In this document: positions 5,169 through 62,106 of the stretch, one piece after another | Layout: each line of letters opens with the position of its first letter | Position numbering within the stretch: position 1 is the first letter of the stretch | IMG/VR virus record: IMGVR_UViG_3300044568_003939 | DNA from: a virus | DNA: 64,000 bases | Strand: one strand, 5' to 3' | Notes under the pieces: model-generated | What the model saw: the letters and a program-made list of their open reading frames with translations, nothing else | Told to the model about the DNA's origin: nothing | The model's database searches: none | Translations under genes and position numbers: made by a program

Positions 5169-6722
5169 ATGAATTCTGGACTTAACTATAATGGCAACCC
5201 ACACGTGAAGGGCGATGGTGTGCAGCAAAACTTTACCGCTCATGAGATAGTTGAATATCAGCGCTGCATGGCAGATGTTGGTTATTTTTGTGAGCAGTAT
5301 GTAAAGGTTATTCACTTGGATCATGGGCTTGTTCCTTTTAAGCTGCGTGGTTATCAAGAAAATATGGTAAAACATTTTAGTGATAACCGTTTCAATATAG
5401 TATTAGCATGTCGTCAAAGTGGTAAAAGTATAACAAGTGTGGCATGGCTCCTTCACTATGTCATCTTTAATCCTGACAAGACTATTGGTATACTTGCCAA
5501 CAAAGGTGCAACTGCACGTGAGATGTTGAGCCGCCTTACACTAATGTTGGAGAACCTGCCATTCTTCCTGCAGCCTGGGTGTAAGGTATTGAACAAAGGT
5601 AGTATCAAGTTTAGCAACAACAGCCAAATTATTGCAGCGGCAACTAGCGGTAGTAGCATTCGAGGCTTGAGTATGAATTGTGTGACAGGTGATACCAAAA
5701 TTTGCATATATGAAAATGATGCAATTTACTATGTTAAAATAGATGATTATATAAATAAAAGTAAACTCATCGAGGAACATATGTATTATACGGTTTATAA
5801 AATCACTAATAAAATTAATGGCAAAATCTATGTAGGTTATCATTCTACGTGTAACATAGATGATGGATATATGGGATCGGGTAAACTGATAAGAAGAGCT
5901 GTTGAGAAGTATGGGGTTGACCAATTTAATAAAGAAATCTTAGCTGTATACAATACCAAAGAAGAAGCTGAGGCTGAAGAAAAAAGAATTGTTGATCGTG
6001 ACTTTACTTTAAGAGAAGACACTTATAATCTATCAGTTGGAGGTAACGTTTGTGTACTGCATGGTGAAAATAATGGATTTTACGGAAAGACGCATAGTAA
6101 AGAAACTCGTGAAAAATTAAGTAAACAAAAAACCGGACTGCCTACTGGAAATGGTTATAAAATAGCACACACTGATGGAAGAATATTCCATACCGTAGAG
6201 GATGCAATAAATGAATTGGGTTATCTTAAAGATTGCAATGCCCACGCTGCGCGAGTAAAAGTAATTTATGAATGCGGCAATCCTAATGGTAATATACAGT
6301 ATGAATTGCCTGGTATTCAATCCGCAGCCGAAGAATTTTATCATAAAAGAAACCAAATGATAGAAGCTTTACCTGAAACGAGAAAATCTAATGGCCGGAT
6401 TGTATCGCAAAAATTAAAAGGTATGCCAAAGCCAGATGGGTTTGGCGAAAAGATTAGCAAGGCATTGACTGGTATGAAAAAGAGCGCAGACCACGTTTCA
6501 AAAATAAATCATAATCCAGAAAAGATACGTAAGACTGCTGAAAAACACAGAGGTATGAAACGTAGCGCAGAATCTAAAGATAAAATGTCACTTGCTAAAA
6601 AGGGAATGATTGCTAAGAATAAAGGTAAGAAATACTTCACCGATCCATCAGATGCATCCAAAAGAGGATATTACTTTCCGCATGAAGCGCCAACTGGATG
6701 GGTTAACACAACTAAGAAATGA
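5169..6722 (+). CDS. 17: terminase large subunit N-extein + short N-intein + in-frame GIY-YIG endonuclease
   Basis: Walker A region CRQSGKS; the extein ends SSIRGLSMN; intein block A CVTGDTKI begins at 5679; the frame continues into YTVYKITNKINGKIYVG...YMGSG. Likely start is ATG 5169. Confidence 0.9.
   Translation: MNSGLNYNGNPHVKGDGVQQNFTAHEIVEYQRCMADVGYFCEQYVKVIHLDHGLVPFKLRGYQENMVKHFSDNRFNIVLACRQSGKSITSVAWLLHYVIFNPDKTIGILANKGATAREMLSRLTLMLENLPFFLQPGCKVLNKGSIKFSNNSQIIAAATSGSSIRGLSMNCVTGDTKICIYENDAIYYVKIDDYINKSKLIEEHMYYTVYKITNKINGKIYVGYHSTCNIDDGYMGSGKLIRRAVEKYGVDQFNKEILAVYNTKEEAEAEEKRIVDRDFTLREDTYNLSVGGNVCVLHGENNGFYGKTHSKETREKLSKQKTGLPTGNGYKIAHTDGRIFHTVEDAINELGYLKDCNAHAARVKVIYECGNPNGNIQYELPGIQSAAEEFYHKRNQMIEALPETRKSNGRIVSQKLKGMPKPDGFGEKISKALTGMKKSADHVSKINHNPEKIRKTAEKHRGMKRSAESKDKMSLAKKGMIAKNKGKKYFTDPSDASKRGYYFPHEAPTGWVNTTKK
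5781..6722 (+). mobile_element. Seg-like GIY-YIG homing endonuclease with NUMOD3-type repeats (internal start)
   Basis: VYKITN..NGKIYVG, GYMGSG, FYGKTHSKETREKLS and HRGMKRSAESKDKMS motifs; own late promoter TATAAATA 5750-5757 and GAGGA just before ATG 5781. Confidence 0.85.
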
Positions 6723-8107
6723 TTGAGGTATTAACGCATAAAGGGTTTAAGCAATTTGATGGAATACTAAATAAGGGTGTTTCAGATAGTCTTCTATATA
6801 TTACATGTACTGCTGATAAGAGTATCAAATGCACGCCTGATCATGAACTTTTAATGGATGATGGTGAAACATATATACCTGCAAGATTTTTACAAATTGG
6901 AGATGTACTTTACACAAATATCTGTATAGAAAGTATAAATGAAATTGCAAATGAATCGGTTTATGATTTGCTAAATGTTAAAGATACTCATGCATATTAT
7001 ACAAATGGATTAATTAGTCATAACTGTATTTTTCTTGACGAATTTGCGTTCGTGCAAAATGCAAATGAGTTTTATACAAGTACCTATCCTGTTATTTCAT
7101 CTGGTAAAGATACCAAGGTGATCATCACAAGTACACCTAATGGCGTAGGCAATATGTTTTATCGCTTGTGGGAAGGCGCGGTACAAAAGACAAGCGAATT
7201 TAAACCATTCACAATCAAATGGAGCGATGTTCCTGGGCGGGATGAAGCATGGAAACGTCAAACAATTGCTAACAGCAGCGAATTGCAGTTTGCCCAAGAA
7301 TTTGAAGTTAACTTTATTGGCAGCAGCGCTACTCTAATTAGCAGTGAAGCACTACTAGGTCTAAAAGGCGTTGAGCCAAGCAAGCGCCAATATGGCATAC
7401 GCTATTATGATGATCCGGTTGAAGGGCATGAGTATATCATGACGGTTGATGTTTGCAAAGGGAGAGGGCAGGACTATAGTACATTTACAGTTTTCGATGT
7501 TAGCACCATGCCATTCAAGACGGTGTGTACTTATCGTGATAATCTAATTAGTCCACTGATATATCCAGAATTGATAGTGCGTGCCGCCAAGCAATATAAC
7601 AATGCAATGGTGGTTATTGAAAATAATGATGCTGGACAAGTTGTTTGTAATGCTGTATACTATGAATATGAATATGATAATATGTTTGTATCAAGTGCGG
7701 TCAAAAGCAACGGCATTGGCGTGGTAATGACAAAAAGAGTTAAACGAATTGGCTGTAGTAATCTTAAAGACTTGATTGAAAGCGGTAAGCTGGAAGTATG
7801 TGATATAGACACCATTTCAGAACTTAGCAGCTTTGAGCCAAAGGGCGACAGCTATGCGGCGCGTGGAAGTACGCACGATGACTTGGTAATGAATCTTGTA
7901 ATGTTTTCATGGTTTGTTAGCACTGATGCATTTGGCGGTATAAGTAATGTTGATCTTAAGCAACTCTTGTATAGCGAAAAGATACGAGAGATGGACGAAG
8001 ACGTTCCACTGTTTGGAATCATAAACAACTATGTGTCAGATGCTCCAGAAAGCTCTCAATACTATGAAGAAGCCCTAGAGCAAAACCGAGAATGGAGCGG
8101 CTTATAA
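6719..8107 (+). CDS. 17: C-intein (102 aa) + terminase large subunit C-extein
   Basis: Block B CTPDHELL, block F VYDLL, block G ISHN, then the +1 Cys (7025) and Walker B IFLDEFAF; nuclease motif HDDLVM. Confidence 0.92.
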   Translation: MIEVLTHKGFKQFDGILNKGVSDSLLYITCTADKSIKCTPDHELLMDDGETYIPARFLQIGDVLYTNICIESINEIANESVYDLLNVKDTHAYYTNGLISHNCIFLDEFAFVQNANEFYTSTYPVISSGKDTKVIITSTPNGVGNMFYRLWEGAVQKTSEFKPFTIKWSDVPGRDEAWKRQTIANSSELQFAQEFEVNFIGSSATLISSEALLGLKGVEPSKRQYGIRYYDDPVEGHEYIMTVDVCKGRGQDYSTFTVFDVSTMPFKTVCTYRDNLISPLIYPELIVRAAKQYNNAMVVIENNDAGQVVCNAVYYEYEYDNMFVSSAVKSNGIGVVMTKRVKRIGCSNLKDLIESGKLEVCDIDTISELSSFEPKGDSYAARGSTHDDLVMNLVMFSWFVSTDAFGGISNVDLKQLLYSEKIREMDEDVPLFGIINNYVSDAPESSQYYEEALEQNREWSGL

Positions 8108-8191
8108 AACAGTGTATTTTATAAATAGGATTATTGAAAGTCTTCTTATTATGACAACTTATTATAACACAACAACTGAAAATAAAAAAAT

Positions 8192-10294
8192 ATGGCACTA
8201 ACATCAGCCGGCGTCGAAATTAAAGAAATCGACCTAACAAACATCGTACCTTCACTTGCTACCAGCTTAGGTGGTTATGCAGGATCATTCAACTGGGGCC
8301 CTGCGGGTCAACTGGTTAACGTAAGCTCTGAAAAAGATCTTATTACACTATTTGGTGCGCCAAATAATACAAACACATTGCAAACAGCAAGCTTTTTCAC
8401 AGCTGCCAGCTTTCTAAAATATGGCAACAGTCTTAAAGTTTCTCGTTCGGTTGAAACAACCGATGTTAATGCAGCTTCACCATTTTTAACCACAGCAACT
8501 GGAGTAATTACTGTATTAAATTCGGCGCCTACTGCTGGAGGTACTCTTTATACCGTAGGCGACATTCTTACCATCACAGGTGGAACTACAGGAAATCTTG
8601 CAACTGTAACAGTCACAACTATTGGCGCTGGCGGGGCAGTCACTGGAGTATCACTTATTTCAGGTGGTTCGGGTTATACCACTGGTGGTAGCAAACCTAC
8701 AACTGTTGCATCTGGAACTGGAAGTGGTTGTACATTAAATATAACAACCATTGATGCTGGTTTTACTTATAGTGCATATAGCCCAGTGCTTATTAAAAAC
8801 AAAGATGTGTTTGATGCTATTACAGGTACAAATACTCTTAAAAGTGCAATTGTTGCGCGCTATGCAGGATCATTGGGTAATACACTTAAAGTTGTGATTT
8901 GCCGCGCAAATGCATTGGCCGCGGGTGGAACTGGTATTACTGCACGTACTGATGCTAGCGTGTTTTCATATGTCCCAGGTACAAGTACATATGCTACAGC
9001 TGTTGCAACTGCAAATAGCACACCGAGCACATTAGCTACCAACTTGAGCAAAGTTGTTGATGAAATTCATGTTGCTGTTATTGATAGCGACGGTTCATTT
9101 ACTGGTACGGCCGGCACAGTCCTTGAAAAATATGAAGGCCTTTCACTGTTCACCGATGCAAAAACCGAAAACGGTGCAACCAATTATTATCGTGAGGTAA
9201 TTAACCGTGCTTCAAATTACATCTATATCAATAAATTAAAAGACTCCCGTATTACAAGTGGTACTGCTGGCGTTGTTGAAGGTGAATTTGCAGTTACTGA
9301 TGTTACAGCTTTAAGTGCAATTACAACTCCTCTTGGTGCTAAAGCAAGCACAGGTGGTGTAACCATTACATTAACTGGTGGTGCAAACGTTGCAATGACT
9401 CCTACTGGTATGTCTACTGCATACGACTTGTTTGCTGACTCACAAAGCGTTGACATTGGTTTGCTGTTTGGTGAAGTTCACCAAACAACAGCTACTGCAG
9501 TTACTAATGATGCTAAACTTTCGGCTATTGTGAATGCTCGAAAAGATTGCGTTGGTTTCATAAGTGCTCCAATGTCCATCACTGGTCAATCTACTGATAC
9601 TGGTCGCTTTGGCGAAATTACAACAAAGCTAGGTACAACTGGTTGCCCAGTTAGCAGTTACATAGTAATGGATTCTTCACCAGTTTACGTGTACAACAAG
9701 TATAATGACAATTATCTTTATATTCCTGCTTGCGGCCATGTTGCTGGCTTATGTGCAAATACTGACGCTGTTGCTGATGCATGGTTTAGCCCAGCTGGGT
9801 TTAACCGTGGTCAATTGCAAGATGTAGTTAAACTTGCATACAATCCAAATCAAGCTGACCGTGATGCTTTGTATACTCAAGGTGTTAATCCAATTAGCGC
9901 ATTCCCAGGTCAAGGAGTTGTATTGTATGGAGATAAAACACGTTTGGCAAAACCAAGTGCATTTGATCGCATCAATGTTCGCCGCTTGTTCATTACACTT
10001 GAAAAGGCAATTGCTAACGCATCTAAATTTCAATTGTTTGAACAAAACGATGAATTTACACGTGCAGCATTTAAGAATATTGTTGAGCCATATCTGCGTG
10101 ATGTTCAAGGTCGTCGTGGTATCACTGACTTCCGCGTTGTTTGTGATGCTACAAACAACACTGGGCAAGTAATTGATAGCAATAGTTTTGTTGCTGACAT
10201 TTATATCAAACCAACTCGTTCAATCAACTTCATTACTCTCAACTTTATTGCTACTCGCACAGGTGTTGAGTTTAAAACAATTGTTGGTGCCTAA
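8192..10294 (+). CDS. 18: tail sheath protein gp18
   Basis: GVEIKEID, FNWGP, WFSPAGFNRG and FDRINVRRLF motifs. Confidence 0.96.
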   Translation: MALTSAGVEIKEIDLTNIVPSLATSLGGYAGSFNWGPAGQLVNVSSEKDLITLFGAPNNTNTLQTASFFTAASFLKYGNSLKVSRSVETTDVNAASPFLTTATGVITVLNSAPTAGGTLYTVGDILTITGGTTGNLATVTVTTIGAGGAVTGVSLISGGSGYTTGGSKPTTVASGTGSGCTLNITTIDAGFTYSAYSPVLIKNKDVFDAITGTNTLKSAIVARYAGSLGNTLKVVICRANALAAGGTGITARTDASVFSYVPGTSTYATAVATANSTPSTLATNLSKVVDEIHVAVIDSDGSFTGTAGTVLEKYEGLSLFTDAKTENGATNYYREVINRASNYIYINKLKDSRITSGTAGVVEGEFAVTDVTALSAITTPLGAKASTGGVTITLTGGANVAMTPTGMSTAYDLFADSQSVDIGLLFGEVHQTTATAVTNDAKLSAIVNARKDCVGFISAPMSITGQSTDTGRFGEITTKLGTTGCPVSSYIVMDSSPVYVYNKYNDNYLYIPACGHVAGLCANTDAVADAWFSPAGFNRGQLQDVVKLAYNPNQADRDALYTQGVNPISAFPGQGVVLYGDKTRLAKPSAFDRINVRRLFITLEKAIANASKFQLFEQNDEFTRAAFKNIVEPYLRDVQGRRGITDFRVVCDATNNTGQVIDSNSFVADIYIKPTRSINFITLNFIATRTGVEFKTIVGA

Positions 10295-10870: not shown

Positions 10871-10888
10871 ACCATAAAGTGTTTACCT

Positions 10889-39308: not shown

Positions 39309-39344
39309 ACTGTTTGAAAAATAAACCGCTTAATATATAATACT

Positions 39345-40574: not shown

Positions 40575-40762
40575 ATTTAGAAAACGAAAAAAAGACACTT
40601 AAAGAATGGAAACGTGAATATGGTTTGGCCGATCAAGATGTATTGACCAATCCATTGCTTGAGGAAATTGAATCGCCAACCAGTGAAAAAATGACGCGTG
40701 AATTCTTTGAGCAGGTATACAATATATTTGGTACACAAGCAAATGGCTCTTACCTCATATAA
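40571..40762 (+). CDS. hypothetical protein
   Basis: Overlap-coupled small ORF. Confidence 0.5.
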   Translation: MNLENEKKTLKEWKREYGLADQDVLTNPLLEEIESPTSEKMTREFFEQVYNIFGTQANGSYLI

Positions 40763-41147
40763 CCTTTTTCTTGACGACTTGCGCAATCCTGAGGCCGCAT
40801 ATCTTTATGATGACAAATGCAAGCTGACGGACAAGAGTGGCATAGCAGCTGACAATTGGGTAGTTGTTCGCGACTATTCAGAATTTTGTTTGATGGTCAA
40901 ACATATGATTCCGAAGACAGTGTCATTTGACCATGACCTGCATGAAGAACACATCATTCATTACTTTAGCGTCACACAGCAAACTGGAGTTATTGAATAT
41001 GGCAATCTTAAGAACCTGACTGGTCGCGCATGTGCTCAATACTTAGTGCAACAATGTGAAGCTGCTGGTGTGCAGTTACCAAAGTGTTATATTCACAGTG
41101 CTAACGAATGGGGTCGTAAAGAAATTGCAAAAGCATTAACAGAATGA
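40743..41147 (+). CDS. cyclic-phosphate-processing receiver-like domain protein
   Basis: LFLDDLR.P, WVVVRDY.EF, SFDHDL, TG..CA and HSAN..GR motifs. Confidence 0.7.
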   Translation: MALTSYNLFLDDLRNPEAAYLYDDKCKLTDKSGIAADNWVVVRDYSEFCLMVKHMIPKTVSFDHDLHEEHIIHYFSVTQQTGVIEYGNLKNLTGRACAQYLVQQCEAAGVQLPKCYIHSANEWGRKEIAKALTE

Positions 41148-51098: not shown

Positions 51099-51261
51099 AG
51101 CTGCAAATAAATTGCGAAAAAAATTATCAGATATTCATTTAGGCAAAAAGAAAACTTGGAATATTGTTCATTGTCCCTATTGTGCTAAAATCGGGCGGCG
51201 TCCAAACATGACAAGATATCATTTTAATAAATGCAAAAAAGTCCTTTACAAATCCATATAA
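51091..51261 (+). pseudogene. homing endonuclease C-terminal remnant
   Basis: RKKLSDIHLGK + CPYCAKIG..PNMTRYHFNKCK, with no nuclease domain. Confidence 0.55.
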
Positions 51262-51279
51262 ACAGTATATAATAAATTT

Positions 51280-51405
51280 ATGAAAAACAGCAACCCCAAG
51301 GTAAAGCCAAAGAAAATTCGTCGCAAGGGAATCCATGCCAAAAGCAAAACTTCTCATCTTAAGCAAAGTAAAAACTACAAGAAACTGTCACGTGGCCAAG
51401 GTTAA
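51280..51405 (+). CDS. 41-aa highly basic peptide (not in ORF track)
   Basis: MKNSNPKVKPKKIRRKGIHAKSKTSHLKQSKNYKKLSRGQG*; promoter 51245-51273 lies 6 nt upstream. Confidence 0.65.
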   Translation: MKNSNPKVKPKKIRRKGIHAKSKTSHLKQSKNYKKLSRGQG

Positions 51406-51421
51406 TCCAAACACAACTGCT

Positions 51422-51763
51422 GTGACTCCACCAGTTAAAGAAAGTATTCTGGTATTGAAAGAATGCGCCGAATTGCAAGAACGCAAGAGTCGTGACTATC
51501 AAAACCCAAACAGTCGCATTCGTCAAGCAAACTATTACCCACGCGGTGTAGCTAGCATTCTTGATATTATTCAAGCTAAGGTATTGCGAATGTATAGTGT
51601 GATTGAAGCTATGGAAAATGATCCTGAGTATCAACCCAACTTTGAGAGTATTGAAGATAGTGGTAAGGATCTAATCAACTACAGTTCATTCCTTGTAGCA
51701 TATATGCGCGGCAAAGTTGATGGTCAAGAAGCTGATCGCGATTTTCTTAACCGCCGCATCTAA
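51422..51763 (+). CDS. nucleotide-modification-associated all-alpha protein (DUF1599/Nmad-like)
   Basis: ERKSRDY...ESIEDSGKDLINYS; start uncertain (GTG 51422 or ATG 51335). Confidence 0.65.
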   Translation: MTPPVKESILVLKECAELQERKSRDYQNPNSRIRQANYYPRGVASILDIIQAKVLRMYSVIEAMENDPEYQPNFESIEDSGKDLINYSSFLVAYMRGKVDGQEADRDFLNRRI

Positions 51764-51778
51764 GCATATATACATCAT

Positions 51779-52843
51779 ATGATTTCAGACTATACAACCA
51801 CTCTTGTTGTTGACTTTGATGATACCATTGCTATTACTCACAATCGTGATTGGGTAAATGCAATGCCAAATGTTGCGCTTGTCAACAAACTCAATGCTTT
51901 ATGTGATGATGGCTGGAGCATTCATATTGTTACCGCACGAGGTCAACTCTCATGTAATGGTGATTGTGAAGCGGCCGATCTCAAGTACAGAGCACAAATT
52001 GAGAGCTGGCTAACTCAGCATGACGTAAAGTATAGCTCGCTTAGCTTCCAAAAGAAGCTTGCAGCATACTACATTGATGACAAAGGTATTACACCAGAAC
52101 AATTTGTTAAAAGCTTTGAGCGCACAAGATTGGTTGGCGGTTGGAGTGGTGACTCTGTGTATTATGATAAAGTGACAGACAGCGTCTACAAGACATCAAA
52201 AAATACACAGAGTGTTGTGCGATGGTTTGAGGCCGCGCGATGGTATGGTTATAATGTCCCAGGAGTGCATAGTGTTATTGGTGATACTATTCGTATGCAA
52301 TATTTGCATACATACAGTGGTGACATAACCGACGTGCTGGAAACCGTTCATACCTTCGCTTCTCATCCGCCTCTGCAATCTGAACCTGTTAGCGCCGATT
52401 CATATATTTCACGCTGTCGTGAACGCGTTAAGGACCTGCTGTATATTGGCGACTATAGTTTCATCTATATTCTGCTTAATGGCGCGATGTGGTATACACC
52501 AACATCCTTTAGTCATGGAGATTGCAGCATCAGTAACATTATGAGTAATGATAGTACTGGTCAAAGCATTTGTTTTATTGATCCAATCAATGACATCACA
52601 CTATATAGTTCATGGGTCATTGACATTGCCAAACTATATACTACAATTGCTTTGAACGACTCGTCTGATTCTTCACTTCAACTTATTGAAAATAGTGGAT
52701 TGGTGCCGGTCGAAGTTCTTAAGGCTCATGAGATTGGTCATCTTTGTAGAATGTATCCATATGCGAATGACAAAGAATATCTATTACAATACTTAAAAAA
52801 TAAAATCAATGCTGCCAGACAAACAATATACACAACTAGATAA
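51779..52843 (+). CDS. HAD phosphatase + APH/choline-kinase-like fusion
   Basis: N-terminal VVDFDDTI, VTARG and YYIDDK; C-terminal SHGDCSISNI, FIDP and DIAKL. Confidence 0.78.
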   Translation: MISDYTTTLVVDFDDTIAITHNRDWVNAMPNVALVNKLNALCDDGWSIHIVTARGQLSCNGDCEAADLKYRAQIESWLTQHDVKYSSLSFQKKLAAYYIDDKGITPEQFVKSFERTRLVGGWSGDSVYYDKVTDSVYKTSKNTQSVVRWFEAARWYGYNVPGVHSVIGDTIRMQYLHTYSGDITDVLETVHTFASHPPLQSEPVSADSYISRCRERVKDLLYIGDYSFIYILLNGAMWYTPTSFSHGDCSISNIMSNDSTGQSICFIDPINDITLYSSWVIDIAKLYTTIALNDSSDSSLQLIENSGLVPVEVLKAHEIGHLCRMYPYANDKEYLLQYLKNKINAARQTIYTTR

Positions 52844-52854
52844 AAACCAGAAAT

Positions 52855-53310
52855 ATGTACATTAATAAAAAAGAAATAGCAAAAAAACTAAATAAAGATG
52901 TAACCGAGGTTATAATTGGTTTCAGCTGTTCCACCTTCGATCTCTTTCATGCTGGCCACACAGTAATGCTTATGGAAGCAAAACAATTGTGTGACTATCT
53001 AATTGTAGGATTATTGGTTGATCCCACAAAGGATCGTGCTGATACAAAGAACGCACCAGTTCAAAGTGTATTTGAGCGATACCTACAAGTATCAGCATGC
53101 AAATATGTGGACGAAATTATTCCCTTTGAAACCGAAAAGGATCTGGAAGATATGATTCTTACAATCAATCCTGATGTGCGCATTGTTGGCGAGGAATACC
53201 AAGGTACCAATCACACCGGAAAAGACCTTTGCCCAATCCATTACAACAAAAGAAGACACAGTTTCTCTACAAGTGAATTGAGATCGCGCGTCATTGCAAA
53301 GAAAAATTAA
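52855..53310 (+). CDS. HIGH-motif nucleotidyltransferase (TagD/RfaE-like cytidylyltransferase)
   Basis: STFDLFHAGH, CDYLIVGL, KYVDEII and FSTSELR motifs. Confidence 0.88.
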   Translation: MYINKKEIAKKLNKDVTEVIIGFSCSTFDLFHAGHTVMLMEAKQLCDYLIVGLLVDPTKDRADTKNAPVQSVFERYLQVSACKYVDEIIPFETEKDLEDMILTINPDVRIVGEEYQGTNHTGKDLCPIHYNKRRHSFSTSELRSRVIAKKN

Positions 53311-53326
53311 CCACATATATAACTCT

Positions 53327-54346
53327 ATGAAGATACTTATTACTGGAGGCTGCGGCTTCGTCGGAACAAATCTTATTCCTAATTTGTTAGAACTAGGGCA
53401 TGATGTGATTGTAATTGACAATCTTGCGCACGGCTCATATATCCCTGAAGTGCATGATCGTGTCCGTTTTTTCAAATGCGATATTCGTGACCGTGAAGCA
53501 ATGCATTTACACATTGGCAATATCAAACCTGACATTACTTTTCACTTTGCAGGCTTGGTTAGCATTTATGATTGCCATCGTGACCCATCAAGTGCGGTTG
53601 ACAACAACATTGTTGGTAGTGTAAATGTATTTGATGCACTGCTTGCAGCCGGTTGCCCACGCGTTGTTTTCTCTGAGACGAGTGCAGTATATGAAAATTG
53701 TGAGCTGCTACAAGATGGTTATTTTGAAGGCCAAAGCGATCCTACTACAGTGTATGCAAGCACTAAAGCAGCTGTTGCATTGCTTGCTGAAAGTTATGCA
53801 CGCACCAAAGGATTGCGCTATACTGCATTGCGTTACTTTAATATTGCAGGGCCTATTCAAGACTACAAGCGCACTGTGCCTCCACTGTTTGCCGGCTTTG
53901 CTATTCGCATGATGGGAGGTAACAACCCAATCATCTTCGGCGATGGCCAACGTCGTAGGGACTTTATTCATGTTGATGACGTGAATGCTTTTCACGTTCA
54001 ATGCTTAACCGATGATCGCACTATTGGCCAAACATACAATCTTGGGCGTGGACAAAGTTGTAGCCTATTTGAAATTGGTGATGCTGTTGCAGGTGTACTT
54101 AAAGCGCGTGGATATGAAGTGCCAGATGCAGTAGAATATACCTTTATGCCGGAAATCAACGGTGAAGCATTTGAAATATTTGCGGATATTCGCAAGGCGC
54201 TCTCGCTTGGCTGGTGCCCAAAGAAAAGTATCTCAACTGCACTTGATGATACAATTGCCTATCTTGAAAAAGAAATTGAGCGAGGCGCCATTGATCCTCT
54301 AACCTACATGGTTGACTTGAATACCGACAGCGTTAAGATTGGATAA
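53327..54346 (+). CDS. NAD-dependent nucleotide-sugar epimerase/dehydratase
   Basis: ITGGCGFVG, YASTK, LRYFNI and GDGQRRRDFIHVDD motifs. Confidence 0.92.
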   Translation: MKILITGGCGFVGTNLIPNLLELGHDVIVIDNLAHGSYIPEVHDRVRFFKCDIRDREAMHLHIGNIKPDITFHFAGLVSIYDCHRDPSSAVDNNIVGSVNVFDALLAAGCPRVVFSETSAVYENCELLQDGYFEGQSDPTTVYASTKAAVALLAESYARTKGLRYTALRYFNIAGPIQDYKRTVPPLFAGFAIRMMGGNNPIIFGDGQRRRDFIHVDDVNAFHVQCLTDDRTIGQTYNLGRGQSCSLFEIGDAVAGVLKARGYEVPDAVEYTFMPEINGEAFEIFADIRKALSLGWCPKKSISTALDDTIAYLEKEIERGAIDPLTYMVDLNTDSVKIG

Positions 54347-54347
54347 T

Positions 54348-55622
54348 ATGAATGTATATGTAGGAAAGATTGGCAAGAGCATATTGTTTAATCGCAATTC
54401 ATGGGGGAATATTGGCGGTGACTGCGAAGCGCCCAAGTATTATGAAAACCTATTTGCGCGTAATCCTAGCATTACATTTTACCTGTTGGGTTGCAATGAC
54501 TTTTCACGTCTAAGCAGCAGCGAAAAGCAACGCATCAATGCGAATGGTAATGTGGTTGACATTTGGGGTAAGCAGTTTGTGGATTGGAAAAAGAACAATC
54601 CAATGGACAGTAAATTACACAATATAGAATACCTTAAAGAATATGTTGCACTCAATCATGTAAAGTTTGATGCTGGTGTTGTATTTACTGGTCCAACCGG
54701 TACTACCAACATTCCATTTAAGGTTACCAAAATGCGTAACCCTAGTGAGGTTGCAAGTCCTCTTGAAATGTTATGCAAATATGTTGCACCCATGACGGAT
54801 TGGATGAATGATAATCGCCACATCCCATACATTCTCATTGTAAATGATCCACGCTTCTGGCCTCCTAATGCACGCGATTGGATTCATATGCCAACCATTG
54901 TCTTGTCACAATATGATGAAGATACGCGTGTAACAGTTCGTAAAAACTATACAGACAATGAAACGGTAGTGCACACCATTCCCAGTACCTATAGTGCAAT
55001 GGAAACCATCTTTCTTATTGGACAAGATAAAGAAAAGCAAAGCGCCGAAACGGAAACTTCGTCGTTGGATACATTCTTTGGTGAAGACATACCAGAGCCG
55101 GCTGGTATAAAAGACATCAACTTTATGATTGTTCTCAATGAGGGGCGACCATCACGATACAACCTGTTGAAAGAAACCATTCTTAACCATGTACAAGATG
55201 TAGCAATCTATGGCAAATGGGATGAGCGTACTATTGGAACAGACTCTCGTTTTAAAGGCAGCTTACCGTTCCATGAATTGCAAAGCATGCTGCCGCGCGT
55301 AAAATATACTTATTGCATTCCTATCAAAAAAGGATGGGTCACCATGAAGTTCTGGGAGATGGCTCATTATGGAATCATACCATTCCTGCATCCAACTTAT
55401 GATGAACAAAACCATTTAAATGCTCCACAGTTCTTGCGTGTAAAGGACAGTAAAGACCTATTTGATAAGATTGCATATCTTGAAAGTAATCCAGACGCAT
55501 ATACTAAGTTGCGCGATACTCTTGATACTATGTTAAAGCCATCATACTATTCTGGTGAGCATTTGAATGATGTTACGCTAGCTGCATTGAATAAGATTAC
55601 GGGTCCCGGCAAAGTCCTATAA
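54348..55622 (+). CDS. T4 beta-glucosyltransferase-like GT-B DNA glycosyltransferase
   Basis: NDPRFWP (cf. BGT TDPRLP), FKGSLP, VTMKFWE (cf. ITLRVWE) and HPTYD; modification-cluster context. Confidence 0.7.
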   Translation: MNVYVGKIGKSILFNRNSWGNIGGDCEAPKYYENLFARNPSITFYLLGCNDFSRLSSSEKQRINANGNVVDIWGKQFVDWKKNNPMDSKLHNIEYLKEYVALNHVKFDAGVVFTGPTGTTNIPFKVTKMRNPSEVASPLEMLCKYVAPMTDWMNDNRHIPYILIVNDPRFWPPNARDWIHMPTIVLSQYDEDTRVTVRKNYTDNETVVHTIPSTYSAMETIFLIGQDKEKQSAETETSSLDTFFGEDIPEPAGIKDINFMIVLNEGRPSRYNLLKETILNHVQDVAIYGKWDERTIGTDSRFKGSLPFHELQSMLPRVKYTYCIPIKKGWVTMKFWEMAHYGIIPFLHPTYDEQNHLNAPQFLRVKDSKDLFDKIAYLESNPDAYTKLRDTLDTMLKPSYYSGEHLNDVTLAALNKITGPGKVL

Positions 55623-55630
55623 ATCAATTT

Positions 55631-56902
55631 ATGGAGAACGCACAAAAGAAATACACATACGCATCAATCGTACCGCTTATTGGCGGTGAATCACTTGGAG
55701 TCATGGAAGCACTAGATGGACAACTTCCAGAATACGTATTATCATATAGTCCCTTTGCAAGCAATGACGATCACTACATTCAATACATCCGCAACACAAA
55801 AGGATGGACTGGTGACTATATTCACCTTGACAAACAGCCTGATTATGTACCAGAATCGGTTGATGTTGTAAATTCCACCTGCCCTTGTGCTGGTTTGAGC
55901 AGCCTTAGCACTGCAAGCAGTGCAGATAGTGCAGTTAATGAATGGTTGTATACCACCGCTGAATATGTACTTGATAAAGTAGGTCCTAAAGTATTTTGGG
56001 GCGAGAATGCTCCACGTTTATACAGCAACATGGGTAAAAAAGTCGCAGACCGTTTGTTTGCTATCGGCGAAAAGTATGGGTATAGCTTAAACTTGTATTA
56101 TACTGAAAGCCGCCTTCACGGCCTGTCTCAAAAGCGCGGCCGCACATTCTACTTCTTTACTAAGAGTACATCTGCTCCGCTATTTAGTTGGTTTAATGTT
56201 CCTGGAGAACCCATTGAAAACATCTTTAATATGGCATATGCTGATGGTGATCCAATGAATATCTCTTGCAATGAAGATGATCCCAATACCAATGGTTGGG
56301 CTGCATACGCCATGCACAAGACTGGTACTAAAGATATTAAAGAACTATATGACACCCTGGATGATACACAGAATCTTATTGTCTGGGCCGACGGCGGCTT
56401 AGGTGATAATCTTACAGTTGTATCGGAATGGATGGATGCGAATGGTTATACTAAAACTGCAGGACGTGCTCGGGATATGGCCGCTAAACGTGCAAAAGGT
56501 ATGGGTTACTGGGCGCATGGCATTACTATGGTCAAAGGTATTATTCCTAGTCTGATTGGAGCATTGCCATTCTGGATGATTAATCCATTTACTCAAAGCT
56601 TTCCAACTGTACGTGACTGTCTCCGTGTTATGAAGATGCCTGAAGACTTTAATCTTGCATCATTGCACCCGCTTAAAACCAAGATTAATCACATCTGCCA
56701 AAATGTACCTGTAAGTACAGCTCGTGATATGATGCTTAATGTAGTAAAGTATCTTGATGGCGATGTTACTTGGAGTGAAAGTAACTATACCAAACAAAGC
56801 AATAAGAATAAGACGGTTGAATATCCTACACGTGTGCTGCTAAATAATTCTCATGAACTTGATGAATTTTTTAGTTTACAGAAGAAGAAAAACCTGTTAT
56901 AA
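55631..56902 (+). CDS. C5-cytosine methyltransferase-fold protein with atypical SAM motifs
   Basis: Motif IV TCPCAGLS, VI GENAP, VIII QKRGR and IX VRDCLRVMKMPEDF; motif I reads VPLIGG and motif X reads CQNVPV. Confidence 0.75.
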   Translation: MENAQKKYTYASIVPLIGGESLGVMEALDGQLPEYVLSYSPFASNDDHYIQYIRNTKGWTGDYIHLDKQPDYVPESVDVVNSTCPCAGLSSLSTASSADSAVNEWLYTTAEYVLDKVGPKVFWGENAPRLYSNMGKKVADRLFAIGEKYGYSLNLYYTESRLHGLSQKRGRTFYFFTKSTSAPLFSWFNVPGEPIENIFNMAYADGDPMNISCNEDDPNTNGWAAYAMHKTGTKDIKELYDTLDDTQNLIVWADGGLGDNLTVVSEWMDANGYTKTAGRARDMAAKRAKGMGYWAHGITMVKGIIPSLIGALPFWMINPFTQSFPTVRDCLRVMKMPEDFNLASLHPLKTKINHICQNVPVSTARDMMLNVVKYLDGDVTWSESNYTKQSNKNKTVEYPTRVLLNNSHELDEFFSLQKKKNLL

Positions 56903-56924
56903 TAATATCTCAACGAAATAATAT

Positions 56925-57839
56925 ATGTCATCTGTACTAGAAAAACTAAAAAAGAATTGCCGAATTAAAGAAGCCGACGTCTTGGCTGACAGCGATTTTT
57001 ATGCTGAAAAAGACATCACCTCCACAAGTGTACCAATGGTCAATGTCGCATTAAGCGGCAGTATTGACGGTGGATTGACCAGCGGCCTTACCGTTCTTGC
57101 TGGTCCGTCAAAGCACTTTAAGACCAGCTTTGCATTGCTTATGGCAGGTGCATATCTTAAGAAACATAAAGATGCTTGCCTTATGTTTTATGATAGCGAA
57201 TTTGGTAGTCCTCAGCAATACTTCGAAAGCTTTGGTATTGACACCAACCGAGTATTGCATATTCCTATCAAGAATATTGAAGAGCTCAAGTTTGATATTG
57301 TAAATCAACTTGAGCAAATGGAGCGCAAGGACAAGGTAATTATTGTTATTGATAGTGTTGGTAACCTTGCATCCAAAAAAGAATTGGAAGATGCAATGAA
57401 TGAAAAGAGCGTTGCCGACATGACTCGTGCTAAAGCGCTTAAAGGATTGTTCCGTATGGTTACGCCATACCTTACAATGAAAAACATTTGCTTGCTTGCA
57501 ATCAACCATACCTACCTCGAGATCGGACTTTTCCCTAAGTCAATTGTTAGCGGAGGATGTGTTGCTGCTGGAACTCTTATTACTCTGCCTGATGGAACAA
57601 CCAAAGCCGTTGAAGACTTTATTGAAGGTGATACTGTTCAAACATTGGATGGGCCTAAGGAAGTTACTGCTGTCTGGAATCCTGATACTCTTGAAGACGG
57701 TGAGCCCGAATGCTATGAAGTTACCTTTGAAGACGGTCATACTGTCATTTGTAGTGATACCCATAAGTTCATGATTGGCGACCAATGGGTTGAAGCTAAA
57801 GATTTGGTGGTTGCTCAAGACTGTAAAGTATTGGTTTAA
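56925..57839 (+). CDS. uvsX: UvsX N-extein + 93-aa N-intein
   Basis: LAGPSKHFKT, YDSEFG and DSVGNLAS motifs; the extein ends IVSGG; intein CVAAGT starts at 57558; block B CSDTHKF; promoter at 56875-56903. Confidence 0.93.
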   Translation: MSSVLEKLKKNCRIKEADVLADSDFYAEKDITSTSVPMVNVALSGSIDGGLTSGLTVLAGPSKHFKTSFALLMAGAYLKKHKDACLMFYDSEFGSPQQYFESFGIDTNRVLHIPIKNIEELKFDIVNQLEQMERKDKVIIVIDSVGNLASKKELEDAMNEKSVADMTRAKALKGLFRMVTPYLTMKNICLLAINHTYLEIGLFPKSIVSGGCVAAGTLITLPDGTTKAVEDFIEGDTVQTLDGPKEVTAVWNPDTLEDGEPECYEVTFEDGHTVICSDTHKFMIGDQWVEAKDLVVAQDCKVLV

Positions 57840-57886
57840 GTTAAAATCGTCAATTGTATAAATAAGTATGTTAACCACACATACCT

Positions 57887-58576
57887 ATGACATTTAAATT
57901 GATGATAAAAACGCATAACATAACAGGTCTTAAATATCTGTGCGTCACTTCCAAAGATGACTATGAATCGTATAGCGGTTCTGGGCATTACTGGAAGTCA
58001 CACATAAAGACGCATGGCAAAGATATTTTTACTGAGTTATTAGGAACATACCAAACAAAAGAAGAATTGCGAAATGCCGCTGTTTTAGCCTCAGCTAAAT
58101 ATGATGTTGTTGAAAGTAGCGAATGGGCAAATTTAATTCCTGAAACTGGTTATGATTATGACGGCATTACCAGGAAAGGTTGGTTTGGGTGGTATGAATC
58201 TTTATCTGATGAAGAAATAGTGAATAGAAATGAAAACATTAGTTTAAAGGTAAAAGAAAGAATATCTAATACAGATCCGTCTATAATATCAGAAATGAAT
58301 AAAAAGCAACGATTAAACATGTCTGAAGAAGCTGCAAAAATTAGAAAAACAAAAATTCAAGATGTATATAATACAGGAAAGCACGATGCATTATTTAAGA
58401 GATATTCAGAAGAAAGAACTGGTGGAAATAATCCTTGTGCAAAATCAATTATGATTAACGAAATACAGTATGACTGTATTAAAGATGCCGTAAATGCTTT
58501 AAATTTAACTAGAGCCGTTATATCACGCCGAATTAAGTCCGATCATACACAATGGAGTAAATGGAATTACGTTTAA
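57887..58576 (+). mobile_element. free-standing GIY-YIG-like homing endonuclease
   Basis: IKTHNITGLKY..., YSGSGHYWKSHIKTHG and WANLIPE; C-terminal HTH-like DNA-binding module; late promoter at 57857-57864. Confidence 0.75.
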
Positions 58577-58621
58577 AAAAGACCTTTACAAACAGAAGAA
58601 AATATATTATAATATAACATA

Positions 58622-59200
58622 ATGAAAATTAAAGAAATTAAATCAATAGGGCGGCAAAAAGTATATGACCTTAGCGTTAAAGATGCTGAACACTATATTC
58701 TTAAGAATGGTGTTGTGACGCATAACACCGGCATCATGTATAGTGCGGACAATGTTTGGATTATTGGTCGCCAACAAGATAAAGATGGTACTGAAATTCA
58801 AGGCTATCACTTTGTAATCAATGTAGAAAAGAGTCGCTTTGTTAAAGAAAAAAGTAAAATTCCAATCAGTGTAAGCTGGGAAGGTGGCGTTCAAAAATGG
58901 AGCGGCCTATTGGATATTGCTATTCTTGGTGGCTATGTTCGCAAGCCAAAGAATGGTTGGTACCAAGCATGGGACATTGCAAAGGATGTTGAGTTGACTG
59001 GTAACCTGCGTGCTGCTCAAACCATGACTAAAGAATTCTGGGAGACTGTATTTAAGAATACTGACTTTGCGGAATATCTCAAAAACAAGTATACCATCGG
59101 CCTGCGCGACATGATGAATGACGTTGAAGTTGATCTTGATCGCGTTCCTGAGAGTGCAATCACCTTTGAAGAATCGCCTGATACACAAACAGATGACTGA
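58622..59200 (+). CDS. uvsX: 35-aa C-intein + UvsX C-extein
   Basis: MKIKEIKSIGRQKVYDLSV...VVTHN, then +1 Thr (58727) TGIMYSADN and EKSRFVKEK; own promoter at 58585-58613. Confidence 0.93.
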   Translation: MKIKEIKSIGRQKVYDLSVKDAEHYILKNGVVTHNTGIMYSADNVWIIGRQQDKDGTEIQGYHFVINVEKSRFVKEKSKIPISVSWEGGVQKWSGLLDIAILGGYVRKPKNGWYQAWDIAKDVELTGNLRAAQTMTKEFWETVFKNTDFAEYLKNKYTIGLRDMMNDVEVDLDRVPESAITFEESPDTQTDD

Positions 59201-59501
59201 GAAAAAAGACTATATTTTTGTCGAAAATGATTTACATAGTGATCAATACTCGATAAAATTATTGTCTGGACGTTGGGCGGGTGTGATCTATACATATGGA
59301 CGCACCCGCCTCACTGAGGACAAAGAAAATGATGTCTTGAAGGTTTCATTTGTCTATAAGATTGAAAGCACTCCAGAAGGGCTGCTTAAGGAATCGCTAG
59401 ACGAAGACTCTGAATTTAAGAATCATATCGGAGACGTATTAAATCATCTATTATCACAAAGCGAATTTAAAATTGGAAACAACGATGCAAAAGAATCTTG
59501 A
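59193..59501 (+). CDS. hypothetical protein at the gp40 position
   Basis: Lies between uvsX and gene 41; GVIYTYG...HIGDVL. Confidence 0.6.
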   Translation: MTEKKDYIFVENDLHSDQYSIKLLSGRWAGVIYTYGRTRLTEDKENDVLKVSFVYKIESTPEGLLKESLDEDSEFKNHIGDVLNHLLSQSEFKIGNNDAKES

Positions 59502-60126
59502 GGAAATAATCATTAAGAACCTGATACAAAATGAAATGTTTACGCGCAAAGCGCTTCCTCATTTAAAACCCGAATACTTTGAAGGACAGCATAAAGTATT
59601 GTATGAATTGATCTTGTCATTTATCAGCAAGTACAACAAGCTGCCAACTAGCAGTGTCCTAGACATTGAATTTCAAAATAGCGACTATGTTAATCGCAAT
59701 GACCATCACGAAGTGCTAAGCAGCATTCGTGATATTGATAGTCCTGCCAGTGTTGACTATGATTGGCTAGTGGACAACACTGAAAAGTGGTGTAAGGATC
59801 GCGCAGTACATCTTGCAATTATGGAAGCCGTTAGTATTATTGACGGCAAAAGCAAAGATCAGACCGAAGGCGCCATTCCAACCATTCTTAGCAATGCATT
59901 GAGCGTTACCTTTGATACAAATGTTGGACATGACTATCTTGAGAATGCTGAAAGCCGCTATGACTTTTATCACAAGACCGAAGATAAGATTGCCTTTGAC
60001 CTTGAAATGCTTAATACCATTACAGGCGGAGGTATTCCTCGCAAGACGCTCAACATTATTTTGGCAGGCTGTGTTCACCCTGAGACTCCAATTCGAGTAA
60101 GGATTCATAAGAAAATTCTTTCTTAG
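59485..60126 (+). CDS. 41: gp41 helicase N-extein + 18-aa N-intein
   Basis: TEKWCKDRA, VGHDYLE and GGIPRKTLNIILAG, then CVHPETPIRVRIHKKILS* from 60070. Confidence 0.92.
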   Translation: MQKNLEEIIIKNLIQNEMFTRKALPHLKPEYFEGQHKVLYELILSFISKYNKLPTSSVLDIEFQNSDYVNRNDHHEVLSSIRDIDSPASVDYDWLVDNTEKWCKDRAVHLAIMEAVSIIDGKSKDQTEGAIPTILSNALSVTFDTNVGHDYLENAESRYDFYHKTEDKIAFDLEMLNTITGGGIPRKTLNIILAGCVHPETPIRVRIHKKILS

Positions 60127-60871
60127 ACCGTCTGCGATCAGGTTGGTAATTGGGTGCTTTTCCTAATTGCCAACCGCGTAAAAGCAATCCGAATATCCTA
60201 TTGGTTTCAATTCTAAATGTTTTCTCTCCGTTATTCACATATTCTTTTCCACCATCTTTCATACCATATTGCCATCCTTCATCAATTTTTTGTTGAATTT
60301 CGGTATTAAGACACCGTGTTATAACATCATTTTTATGAATCCATAATTTACCAATGTGTGATTTTCCACCCAAATGTGCTCTAGCAGATTGCCCTTCCTT
60401 TGAGGCCCAATATGCCCATGGGTTATTAGGTGAAATTATTGAAGCTTTTCCACCAAGTGATGCAAATTTTGAAAAGTTTTCTGGATTATGAATACCTAGT
60501 TTATTTTTGATTTGTGTCTCAATTCCTCTGCGTGATATCTCAGCTCGCTCTTCCTTACCGATTAAAAACATTCCGATCTTATTCTCATAACACCATTTGC
60601 CAACAATACGTCTTTGTTCATATGTTAATTTTGCTCCTAGCATATGCATTGATCGCAAATCATTAACCATACCATGTATTTTCCACAATAAGAAATGTGC
60701 TGCTATATGCTGTCTAATACTAAGGTAAGTAAAATTACTTTCATCTTCTCCACCACCCGCATGACGGGGAATGATATGATGCTTATGTATGTTTGATCCT
60801 TTACAATAATGAATTTTGTTATTTACATTTTCATTACAGATGTTATAATAGATTTGAGCGTAAAATTTCAT
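60056..60871 (-). mobile_element. HNH homing endonuclease (antisense)
   Basis: HKHHIIPRHAGG...N...L..RQHIAAHFLLWKIH; minus-strand late promoter TATAAATA at 60908-60901; probable ATG at 60871. Confidence 0.85.
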
Positions 60872-60924
60872 AAGATTGATTCTTGTTCCAGCTAACATTA
60901 TATTTATACAAATCACACCTTTAT

Positions 60925-62106
60925 ATGACCGAAAAAATTATTAAAATTAAAGAAATTGAAGAGCTCCTGAATGCAGGATACACAATAGAAGTAGATTCAC
61001 CCGATGGGTTTGTTCCGGTATCAGCATTTGTTGACAAAGGAATCTGGGATGAATATGTTTTACTACTTGATAGTGGAAAAGTTATTCGAGTTAATGAAAA
61101 TCACTTGTTTGAAACCATTGACGGATGGCAATACGCAAAAGATTTAGTTCTTAAAAAACAACAGTATCTAACTGAAAATGGATACCAAATTGGTATTGTT
61201 ACAAAAACAGGAAAGCGAATTCCAATCGTTGATATTCAGGTTGAGCATGATAATCATCGGTATTACACTGATGGTGTTTCTTCACATAATACTGGTTGCG
61301 GAAAAAGTTTGGGTATGTGTCATATGGCTAGTGCTGCACTATCAGAAGGTCGCAATGTATTGTATATCACAATGGAAATGGCCGAAGAAAAGATTGCTGA
61401 GCGTATTGATGCCAATCTTTTTGATGTACGTATTGATCAGTTGAAGGACTTGACTAAAGCATCATTCAATACAAAGGTCAAAGGTATCAGCGATAAAACC
61501 AAAGGTAAACTTGTTGTCAAAGAATATCCAACCGCAAGTGCACATGTCGGTCACTTCCGCGCATTGCTACTTGAACTCAAATTGAAAAAGAAGTTTGTTC
61601 CTGACATCATTTATATTGATTATCTAAACATTTGCGCAAGTAGCCGCATGAAAGGATTGAGCGGAAGCGTCAATACATACAGTCTTATCAAAAGTATTGC
61701 TGAAGAGATTCGTGGATTGGCTGTTGAATTTAATGTACCCATCTGGAGTGCAACTCAAGTTACGCGGTCGGGTTTTCAATCGTCAGATATTGAAATTACG
61801 GATACCAGCGAAAGTTTTGGACTACCTGCAACGGCTGACTTGATGATTGCATTTATTCGTACTGAACAACTTGACAAGATGAATCAAATAATGGTAAAGC
61901 AACTCAAGAATCGTTACAATGATCCAACAACCAATAAACGATTTACAATTGGTGTTGATCTAGCAAAGATGAGACTGTATGATGTGAGCGATCCTACCGC
62001 AAATATTATGGCTGATGACTCTTCACACTCTGCTCCGCAAACTCCTTTTGCTGCAGGGCGAACTAATGCTGGTCGTGCTAATAAGTTTGATGATTTTAAA
62101 ATTTAA
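60925..62106 (+). CDS. 41: 122-aa C-intein + gp41 helicase C-extein
   Basis: Block B VNENHLF, IVDIQV and VSSHN, then +1 Thr (61291) TGCGKS, ITMEMAE, IDYL, SATQ and SESFGLPATAD. Confidence 0.93.
   Translation: MTEKIIKIKEIEELLNAGYTIEVDSPDGFVPVSAFVDKGIWDEYVLLLDSGKVIRVNENHLFETIDGWQYAKDLVLKKQQYLTENGYQIGIVTKTGKRIPIVDIQVEHDNHRYYTDGVSSHNTGCGKSLGMCHMASAALSEGRNVLYITMEMAEEKIAERIDANLFDVRIDQLKDLTKASFNTKVKGISDKTKGKLVVKEYPTASAHVGHFRALLLELKLKKKFVPDIIYIDYLNICASSRMKGLSGSVNTYSLIKSIAEEIRGLAVEFNVPIWSATQVTRSGFQSSDIEITDTSESFGLPATADLMIAFIRTEQLDKMNQIMVKQLKNRYNDPTTNKRFTIGVDLAKMRLYDVSDPTANIMADDSSHSAPQTPFAAGRTNAGRANKFDDFKI

Follow-up and report, generated by a model that had tools for sequence, protein, structure and literature searches.

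Fractured genes were described in ocean metagenomes by Dassa, London, Stoddard, Schueler-Furman and Pietrokovski in 2009 (PMC2677866). In such a gene, a conserved phage-borne gene of DNA metabolism or packaging is encoded as two open reading frames (ORFs), with the N-terminal half of a split intein (IntN) in frame after the N-part and the C-terminal half (IntC) in frame before the C-part, and the gap holds a nuclease gene together with control elements. The three coding regions lie there on one strand, and the nuclease is free-standing. Three natural split positions of inteins are recognised: the canonical one (S0), the one after strand beta-2 (S1; VidaL and PolB16, IntN of 15-16 aa) and the one after helix alpha-1 (S2; AceL-TerL and GOS-TerL, IntN of 25-37 aa) (PMC13014065, PMC11766414). 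The present analysis concerns a segment of an uncultured T4-like myophage (IMG/VR record IMGVR_UViG_3300044568_003939; the whole stretch of 64,000 nt is called the window), in which terL, uvsX and gene 41 are each encoded as two half-genes, with a split intein and a homing-endonuclease gene at each break. These are very probably three independent fractured-gene loci in one phage, whose inteins were cut by nuclease genes and whose halves splice in trans. The sequences argue strongly that active TerL, UvsX and gp41 would most likely require protein trans-splicing.

The window holds one intein per split position (lengths of IntN/IntC in aa): S2 in terL (34/102), S0 in uvsX (93/35) and S1 in gene 41 (18/122). 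The coordinates are collected in Table 1. The arrangement of two ORFs with IntN and IntC in frame is common to all three loci, and uvsX, which was not among the host genes of Dassa et al., fits the published scheme exactly: its half-genes (56925-57839 and 58622-59200) and its nuclease gene lie on one strand, the nuclease being flanked by spacers of 47 nt and 45 nt. The other two loci differ from that scheme in the placement of the nuclease. At gene 41 (half-genes 59473-60126 and 60925-62106) the nuclease gene is antisense and overlaps gp41-N, lying neither on the same strand nor behind a spacer, whereas at terL the nuclease is attached in frame to IntN and is not free-standing. The gp41-1 site of Dassa et al. 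(position 356) is not the Walker A site occupied in the gp41 of the window. The class of mechanism is already well known; the in-frame nuclease fusion of terL and the antisense nuclease of gene 41 are what is unusual.

Table 1. Parts of the terL, uvsX and gene 41 loci with their position in the window, strand and supporting evidence (E, expectation value).
Feature	Position	Strand	Evidence
TATAAATA, T4 late-promoter-like motif 5' of terL	5103-5110	+	consensus match
terL N-extein, 181 aa from TTG 5136 (alternative ATG 5169), ends GLSMN	5136-5678	+	Pfam Terminase_6N, extein alignment
terL IntN, 34 aa (CVTGDTK...)	5679-5780	+	junction alignment
GIY-YIG/NUMOD3 homing endonuclease, 313 aa, in frame with IntN	5781-6722	+	phrog_314, E 2e-41
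terL IntC, 102 aa, block B TPDH, ends SHN	6719-7024	+	CatC, E 2.5e-11
terL C-extein, begins CIFLDE (Walker B)	7025-8107	+	Pfam, extein alignment
Sigma-70-like TTTACA-17-TATAAT 5' of uvsX-N	56875-56903	+	11/12 positions match
uvsX N-extein, 211 aa, ends VSGG	56925-57557	+	Pfam RecA, extein alignment
uvsX IntN, 93 aa, Cys1, block B SDTH, plus stop codon	57558-57839	+	profile vs gp41-1, E 2e-8
TATAAATA, late-promoter-like motif 5' of uvsX nuclease gene	57857-57864	+	consensus match
Free-standing GIY-YIG-family homing endonuclease, I-TevI-type DNA-binding domain	57887-58576	+	phrog_314, E 2e-10
Sigma-70-like TTTACA-17-TATAAT directly 5' of IntC-uvsX-C	58585-58613	+	conserved in L165, L167, L172, L174
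uvsX IntC, 35 aa, ends THN	58622-58726	+	Pfam Intein_splicing, E 2e-5
uvsX C-extein, begins TGIMYS	58727-59200	+	Pfam T4_UVSX_C, extein alignment
gp41 N-extein, 199 aa from TTG 59473 (public gene call: ATG 59485), ends ILAG inside Walker A	59473-60069	+	extein alignment
gp41 IntN, 18 aa, CVHPETPIRVRIHKKILS, plus stop codon	60070-60126	+	tail conserved in 10 related loci
HNH homing endonuclease, 3' end overlaps gp41-N end by 71 nt	60056-60871	-	phrog_655, E 1.7e-13
Sigma-70-like TTTACA-16-TATAAT 5' of IntC-gp41-C, inside antisense HNH gene	60822-60849	+	10-11/12 positions match in 8 loci
TATAAATA, late-promoter-like motif 5' of HNH gene	60901-60908	-	found in 7/8 loci
gp41 IntC, 122 aa, block B NENH, ends SHN	60925-61290	+	VidaL, E 1.7e-12
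gp41 C-extein, begins TGCGKS (remainder of Walker A)	61291-62106	+	Pfam DnaB_C, extein alignment

Direct reading and alignment found all splicing residues in all three inteins: Cys1, the block-B His, the block-F Asp, the terminal His-Asn (HN) and, at +1 (the residue after IntC), Cys in terL and Thr in uvsX and gp41. The IntC of terL matches the consensus atypical intein CatC (6DSL), the IntC of gp41 matches VidaL (6VGV), and gp41-1 (6QAZ) is matched by a uvsX IntN profile built from six loci; with the E values of Table 1, these sequence-based assignments lie far beyond chance. The split types are likewise recognisable. The terL intein has the short IntN, the IntC of ~100 aa holding blocks B, F and G, and the Cat homology of type S2; gp41 has the 18-aa IntN, a break mapped to the loop after the second strand and the VidaL homology of type S1; uvsX has a long IntN with blocks A and B and a short IntC with blocks F and G, as in type S0, for which lengths of ~88-130 aa (IntN) and ~33-54 aa (IntC) are usual. 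The HINT fold is supported by a one-piece AlphaFold2 model for gp41, by a complex model for terL and by sequence only for uvsX.

Among described inteins, that of terL resembles AceL-TerL, GOS-TerL and Cat (6DSL) in its TerL host, S2 split, short IntN (25-37 aa), IntC of ~104 aa, Cys1 and Cys at +1. It differs from them in that the nuclease forms a C-terminal extension of IntN, the promoter-like motif and ribosome-binding site of the nuclease being translated as the IntN tail. The gp41 intein resembles VidaL (6VGV/6VGW) in its S1 split, its IntN (18 aa, against 16 aa in VidaL) and its 122-aa IntC, but is a distant member of that type (~28% identity), with one-piece alleles and an antisense HNH gene on its own side. 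The likeness to AceL-TerL, GOS-TerL and VidaL covers host or split type, lengths and sequence match. The uvsX intein is split at the usual nuclease-insertion site, as in gp41-1 and other canonical phage split inteins, and differs from gp41-1 in host gene, insertion site and Thr at +1. A PF14890 count of inteins in related records was discarded, being insensitive: known gp41 and terL inteins were missed by it.

Conceptual ligation of the exteins gives proteins that align with the uninterrupted proteins of phage C48C1 at 62% (TerL), 71% (UvsX) and 57% (gp41) identity, free of gaps at every junction. The rejoined UvsX reads IVSGG-TGIMYSADNVWIIGR across the junction and the rejoined gp41 NIILAG-TGCGK. 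A sequence-only reading of this DNA had proposed the intein lengths (terL IntN about 34 aa or less) and the +1 residues, which agree to the residue at all three genes, and the restored motifs GLSMN/CIFLDE, VSGG/TGIMYS and LAG/TGCGKS, which are borne out by the gap-free junctions. Its comparison with the gp41-1, AceL-TerL and VidaL types is matched by the hits to gp41-1, CatC and VidaL. The homing endonuclease that it placed between the halves is present at each gene; the strand of the gp41 nuclease went unmentioned there and the in-frame fusion of terL was only implied.

The first terL ORF (5136-6722) comprises the N-extein, IntN and nuclease. Since no stop codon separates IntN from the nuclease (the boundary reads ...LIEEH-MYYTVYK), the N-precursor should consist of TerL-N, IntN and GIY-YIG nuclease in one chain. 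The second ORF (6719-8107) starts through an ATGA overlap with the nuclease stop codon and runs from IntC into the C-extein. The nuclease has its own late-promoter-like motif TATAAATA at 5750-5757, inside the IntN codons D-Y-I-N-K, and a GAGGA ribosome-binding site at 5772-5776, four bases 5' of its ATG and within the last IntN codons; judging by these signals, a free nuclease can probably also start at its own ATG. The complex model combined N-fragment residues 150-528 (nuclease included) with IntC plus 33 extein residues. It passed a mark reached by 51 of 78 solved complexes and 2 of 108 mismatched pairs, scoring 0.87 versus 0.42 for the best control, with at least 34% of contacts shared between runs and a predicted local distance difference test score (pLDDT) of at least 70 in the partner. 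This pass indicates likeness and not binding, because a like complex (Cat, 6DSL) is already solved and the model may recall it. Confident contacts extend on the N side from extein residue -3 to IntN residue 12, plus IntN residues 21 and 24-25, and on the IntC side over residues 2-5, 36-43, 79-84 and 93-103. The model suggests that the functional IntN may end near residue 25, the rest being a linker probably encoded by the former 5' control region of the nuclease.

In gene 41, the split site falls between residues 199 and 200, in the P-loop, in the T4 gp41 structure. The relatives compared here include IMG/VR contigs (such as L008, L086 and L168) and GenBank records (L001, L002 and L245). The opposite orientation of the HNH gene recurs in L005-L014, and the 17-18-aa IntN tail (CVHPxTxhxh+...) is conserved in ten related loci, some of them with a gp41 N-part only 42-48% identical to that of the window. 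At the same Walker A site, L168 (7224-8909), L192, L010 (310-2127) and L015 carry a one-piece mini-intein of 136-140 aa that contains no nuclease and in L168 and L192 is 86% identical to the IntC of the window. One-piece and split alleles of one intein therefore occur in related phages. Alignment to the one-piece allele puts the break of the window in the loop between ...RVR and ...KIKE. In the AlphaFold2 model of the L168 allele (pLDDT 89.7, predicted template-modelling score 0.82) the break follows the second strand, and the best structural match of this model is VidaL (template-modelling score 0.85, 28% identity). The last 23 HNH codons lie opposite the gp41-N end and the entire 18-aa IntN (60056-60126), so that late transcription of the HNH gene would produce RNA antisense to the gp41-N message.

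The breaks recur in independent assemblies. The exact 517-aa fusion protein of the first terL ORF was found on at least 13 contigs, of which the six shown come from six different samples (Logan, ENA, JGI), and at least 10 contigs carry the exact protein of the second ORF. JGI contigs of 119.6 kb and 91.4 kb encode the exact gp41 C-half and have the same uvsX and gp41 layout. These independent copies share 99.9-100% DNA identity with the window. Errors of a single assembly, which the sequence-only reading had named as fatal to its proposal, thus do not account for the stop codons. The ratio of nonsynonymous to synonymous substitution rates (dN/dS) is 0.075 in gp41 IntC (0.10 in the gp41 extein), 0.07-0.14 in uvsX IntN, 0.14-0.24 in terL IntC and 0.05-0.15 in the three nucleases; intein halves and nucleases are thus under purifying selection.

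Among relatives with 93-99% identical exteins the cassettes are present or absent independently. L086 and L087, with TerL 93-97% identical to that of the window, contain no terL intein, while L085 and L143 have exactly its terL layout, including the in-frame fusion and the ATGA overlap. Both uvsX and gp41 are uninterrupted in L177 and L179 (98% identical), and uvsX and gp41 splits occur together in L174. Only gp41 is split in L008 (a 174-kb contig, estimated to be 97% complete); in L165 and L166 uvsX is split, with a different insert between the halves, and gp41 is intact. L168 has a uvsX N-extein 95% identical to that of the window, but its IntN (4634-4909, compared with 57558-57836 of the window) is only 51% identical, its IntC ends in SN instead of HN, and an HNH-like nuclease separates the halves; the same uvsX site thus holds a different intein-nuclease cassette in a close relative.

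Further split inteins were observed in the same genes of some relatives. In L143 (3669-6074; TerL 96-98% identical) a second S2-type split intein lies further 3' in terL (...QEFE/CLDGDSE...): its IntN has ~33 aa, a GIY-YIG-like ORF occupies 4297-4965, and its IntC starts near 4950. The terminase of this phage is therefore encoded in three pieces; terL of the window is uninterrupted at this second site. In L172 (2089-4723) and L173, with UvsX N-parts 95-100% identical, an extra split intein interrupts the Walker A motif of uvsX: GPSKHFK/CLSGDTPISVYY is followed by a stop codon, a 438-aa nuclease-like ORF and an IntC of ~127 aa ending IIHHN/TSFALL. The IntN of this extra intein is only 12 aa long, below the 15-aa record cited in PMC13014065. 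In L009 (5917-8765) the same S1 split of gp41 is joined by a second, canonical split intein in the C-part (...TDTSE/CIAITES...); its IntN has ~96 aa, its gap holds an ORF for a Vsr-like nuclease (7154-8230), and its IntC end, ILTKN/SFGLPA, lacks the penultimate His.

Cultured Straboviridae carry comparable loci. The same uvsX site with a similar 35-aa IntC is occupied in Salmonella phage pSe_SNUABM_01, Escherichia phage HY03, Proteus phage Pm5461 and others. In Yersinia phages TG1 and phiR1-RT, Escherichia phage PD112 and others, terL is broken by an S2-type intein, and a nuclease gene fills the gap; the intein is placed six residues downstream of that in the window (IYIDE/C...HN/CAFIPNF), and the nuclease is in another frame. 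A split gp41 of the type found in the window was absent from the cultured Straboviridae records examined. As pSe_SNUABM_01 has both the uvsX and the terL split, two fractured genes in one genome already exist, unannotated, in public data, and since the cultured carriers grow in the laboratory such arrangements are compatible with function. In KP202158.1 (L001), MH837626.1 (L002) and MN580668.1 (L245), GenBank annotates no split inteins at the fractured genes of cultured T4-like phages: a fractured terL appears as two 'terminase large subunit' coding sequences flanking a 'hypothetical protein', and a fractured uvsX as 'RecA-like protein', 'endonuclease' and 'hypothetical protein'.

The split genes could be explained in other ways. 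The halves could work as non-covalent two-subunit enzymes, with intein halves that are mere dimerisation tags or dispensable, as in phage Aeh1, whose split NrdA has no intein. Functional examples of nuclease-split genes lacking inteins exist (cited in PMC2677866), and covalent joining of the proteins considered here is deduced; but the breaks interrupt Walker A of gp41 and immediately precede Walker B of TerL, and residues of use in splicing only (Cys1, HN and the +1 nucleophile) are conserved across relatives whose gp41 N-extein is only 42-48% identical, at dN/dS of ~0.07-0.2. Such subunit enzymes are very unlikely. A similarly low probability is given to decaying pseudogenes or assembly artefacts (wrong stop codons, a multi-strain contig), under which no single viable phage would possess all three splits. 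The sequence is indeed derived from a metagenome, and cassette-bearing and cassette-free relatives co-occur in the same sample series. Nevertheless, identical stop codons and layouts were recovered in at least six independent datasets for terL and in two for uvsX and gp41, every part is under purifying selection, and L174 also has the uvsX and gp41 splits.

For terL only, a -1 frameshift at the AAG AAA TGA / ATG overlap would yield one precursor, from which an intein containing the GIY-YIG domain would be spliced in cis. IntN and nuclease do share a frame with a one-base offset to IntC, and the overlap is identical in three assemblies. No slippery heptamer is found at the overlap, however, and a TAA in the IntC frame two codons before the ATG restricts the shift to a two-codon window; besides, an ATGA overlap is ordinary translational coupling, and in coliphage relatives the nuclease occupies another frame, with 13-14 nt of overlap. 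Frameshifting is rated marginally below the two preceding explanations. Removal at the RNA level (a group I or II intron) or translational bypass has a negligible probability, even though introns are possible in phage terL genes (PMC10448857). At gathering thresholds Rfam detects no RNA family in the window, hence no group I intron, and the intron reading was dropped for this reason; moreover, the inserts open with an in-frame Cys1, close with HN and a nucleophile, and are homologous to solved inteins.

Several points weigh against trans-splicing of three proteins in this one phage. The support for splicing comes wholly from sequences and models, and docking could be impeded by the 313-aa nuclease attached to the terL IntN. 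In terL, evolution is faster in IntC than in the extein (dN/dS of 0.14-0.24 versus 0.03). There is no clear ribosome-binding site at the start of IntC-gp41-C, and only 8 nt separate the end of the sigma-70-like box from the ATG of IntC-uvsX-C; for these reasons the expression signals are to be taken as consensus matches. The linkage of terL to uvsX and gp41, ~50 kb away, rests on this contig, which may conceivably be a chimeric assembly: strain mixtures are present in the same samples, and the independent contigs of 119.6 kb and 91.4 kb support the uvsX and gp41 pair only.

Under the preferred explanation, three fractured genes joined by trans-splicing, the events could be arranged as follows, with splicing, nuclease homing and promoter use deduced from the observed anatomy, homology, conservation, selection and population polymorphism. 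Inteins would first have been inserted at catalytic motifs, namely ahead of Walker B in TerL, at SGG/TG in UvsX and within Walker A in gp41. Each intein would then have been cut by a homing-endonuclease gene: that of terL after helix alpha-1 (S2), that of uvsX at the canonical nuclease-insertion site (S0) and that of gp41 after strand beta-2 (S1). Two polypeptides would be made per gene, the terL N-half with the GIY-YIG nuclease still on IntN and the C-half translationally coupled through the ATGA overlap. The intein halves would dock into a normal HINT fold, and attack by Cys1, transfer to the Cys or Thr at +1 and Asn cyclisation would release an intact enzyme. The nucleases, provided with late-type promoters, would most likely spread the cassettes to empty alleles. 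Such homing during co-infection would explain the independent presence of cassettes among close relatives.

The putative expression signals, all called as consensus matches, are in keeping with this scheme. The T4 late-promoter motif TATAAATA occurs 15 times in the window against 4.6 expected, mostly just 5' of structural genes, and each of the three nuclease genes has one copy (5750-5757 in terL; Table 1 for the others). The three best sigma-70-like matches within 56.5-62.3 kb precede uvsX-N, IntC-uvsX-C and IntC-gp41-C and recur in most relatives. This pattern would fit late expression of the nucleases from their own promoters and re-equipment of the downstream half-genes with promoters, as proposed by Dassa et al. 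The three pairs, which the sequence-only reading had called co-expressed, share expression only in part: uvsX and gp41 halves follow sigma-70-like motifs and, since terL lies behind a late-type motif TATAAATA at 5103, the pairs are not strictly co-expressed.

The same reading had regarded trans-splicing as a need of all three genes, which is upheld by inference from catalytic residues, selection, identical stop codons and viable cultured carriers; its statement that different split points would enforce orthogonality is not supported. The canonical inteins gp41-1, gp41-8, NrdJ-1 and IMPDH-1 share a split position and yet are mutually orthogonal (PMC11766414), and a 24 x 24 matrix showed cross-talk chiefly between inteins with atypical splits (PMC7090010). 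The three inteins of the window are mutually only ~24-27% identical where alignable, a divergence sufficient to account for specificity. Mutual orthogonality is plausible for them, and sequence divergence appears a likelier source of specificity than the split point. The idea of a co-adapted set disagrees with the independent presence of cassettes in relatives; because cassettes come and go independently, the split points would record separate nuclease invasions, not a selected design. Exchange of halves between co-infecting relatives, also suggested earlier, seems plausible from the sequences: the uvsX IntC of L165 is identical to that of the window, and its IntN is 86% identical.

The remainder of the window has a familiar T4-type gene order: gp13-15, terS, terL, sheath, tube, portal, protease, scaffold, capsid, UvsW, gp46/47, clamp, clamp loader, gp43, uvsX and gp41. 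The capsid protein shares no more than 56.5% identity with its counterparts in Melnitz, HTVC008M and phage C48C1, and the terL region had no megablast match among GenBank phages, from which the phage is taken to lack a close cultured relative. When all intein and nuclease parts were searched against the window in six frames, no fourth intein emerged; the 20 further ORFs scanned with Pfam yielded ordinary T4-like core genes only and no additional nuclease, and no tRNA was detected in the window. The region 38124-41147 holds an RtcB RNA ligase gene (Pfam E 1.6e-66) and, close to it, a gene for a cyclic-phosphate-processing receiver domain (cREC_REC); these two genes possibly form an RNA-repair module. 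Immediately 5' of uvsX (50364-56902) a cluster includes thymidylate-synthase-family (dCMP hydroxymethylase-like), nucleotidyltransferase, epimerase and C5-methyltransferase-fold genes and a large unassigned ORF.

GIY-YIG nucleases are not known inside inteins (PMC2677866). By analogy, the terL fusion would match step IIIa of the Dassa model, in which the nuclease loses its flanks and becomes an intein domain. It is tentatively proposed, at slightly less than even confidence for the proposal taken as a whole, that terL is an intermediate of nuclease capture caught in the act: the GIY-YIG nuclease would be made as the C-terminal domain of IntN, the N-fragment would still splice in trans, and a nuclease-bearing split intein would be excised. 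Together with the one-piece and split gp41 alleles, this lake phage lineage (at least six polymorphic split-intein sites in three genes) would then display several steps of gene breaking as modelled by Dassa et al. and supply three naturally compatible inteins, one per known split position. A literature search of incomplete coverage found no paper on several fractured genes in one phage, a weak sign of novelty.

If splicing is confirmed, one phage would depend on three simultaneous protein ligations for replication, recombination and packaging, and, with one intein per natural split geometry (S0, S1 and S2), it would readily supply protein chemistry with short-tag split inteins. Its greater value lies in evolution: relatives whose host proteins are 90-99% identical carry empty sites, one-piece mini-inteins, split inteins with other nucleases or extra split inteins in the same genes, and the terL allele may represent a nuclease half-way to an intein domain. 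In this natural population the proposed steps of gene fracturing, nuclease capture and homing could be compared directly.

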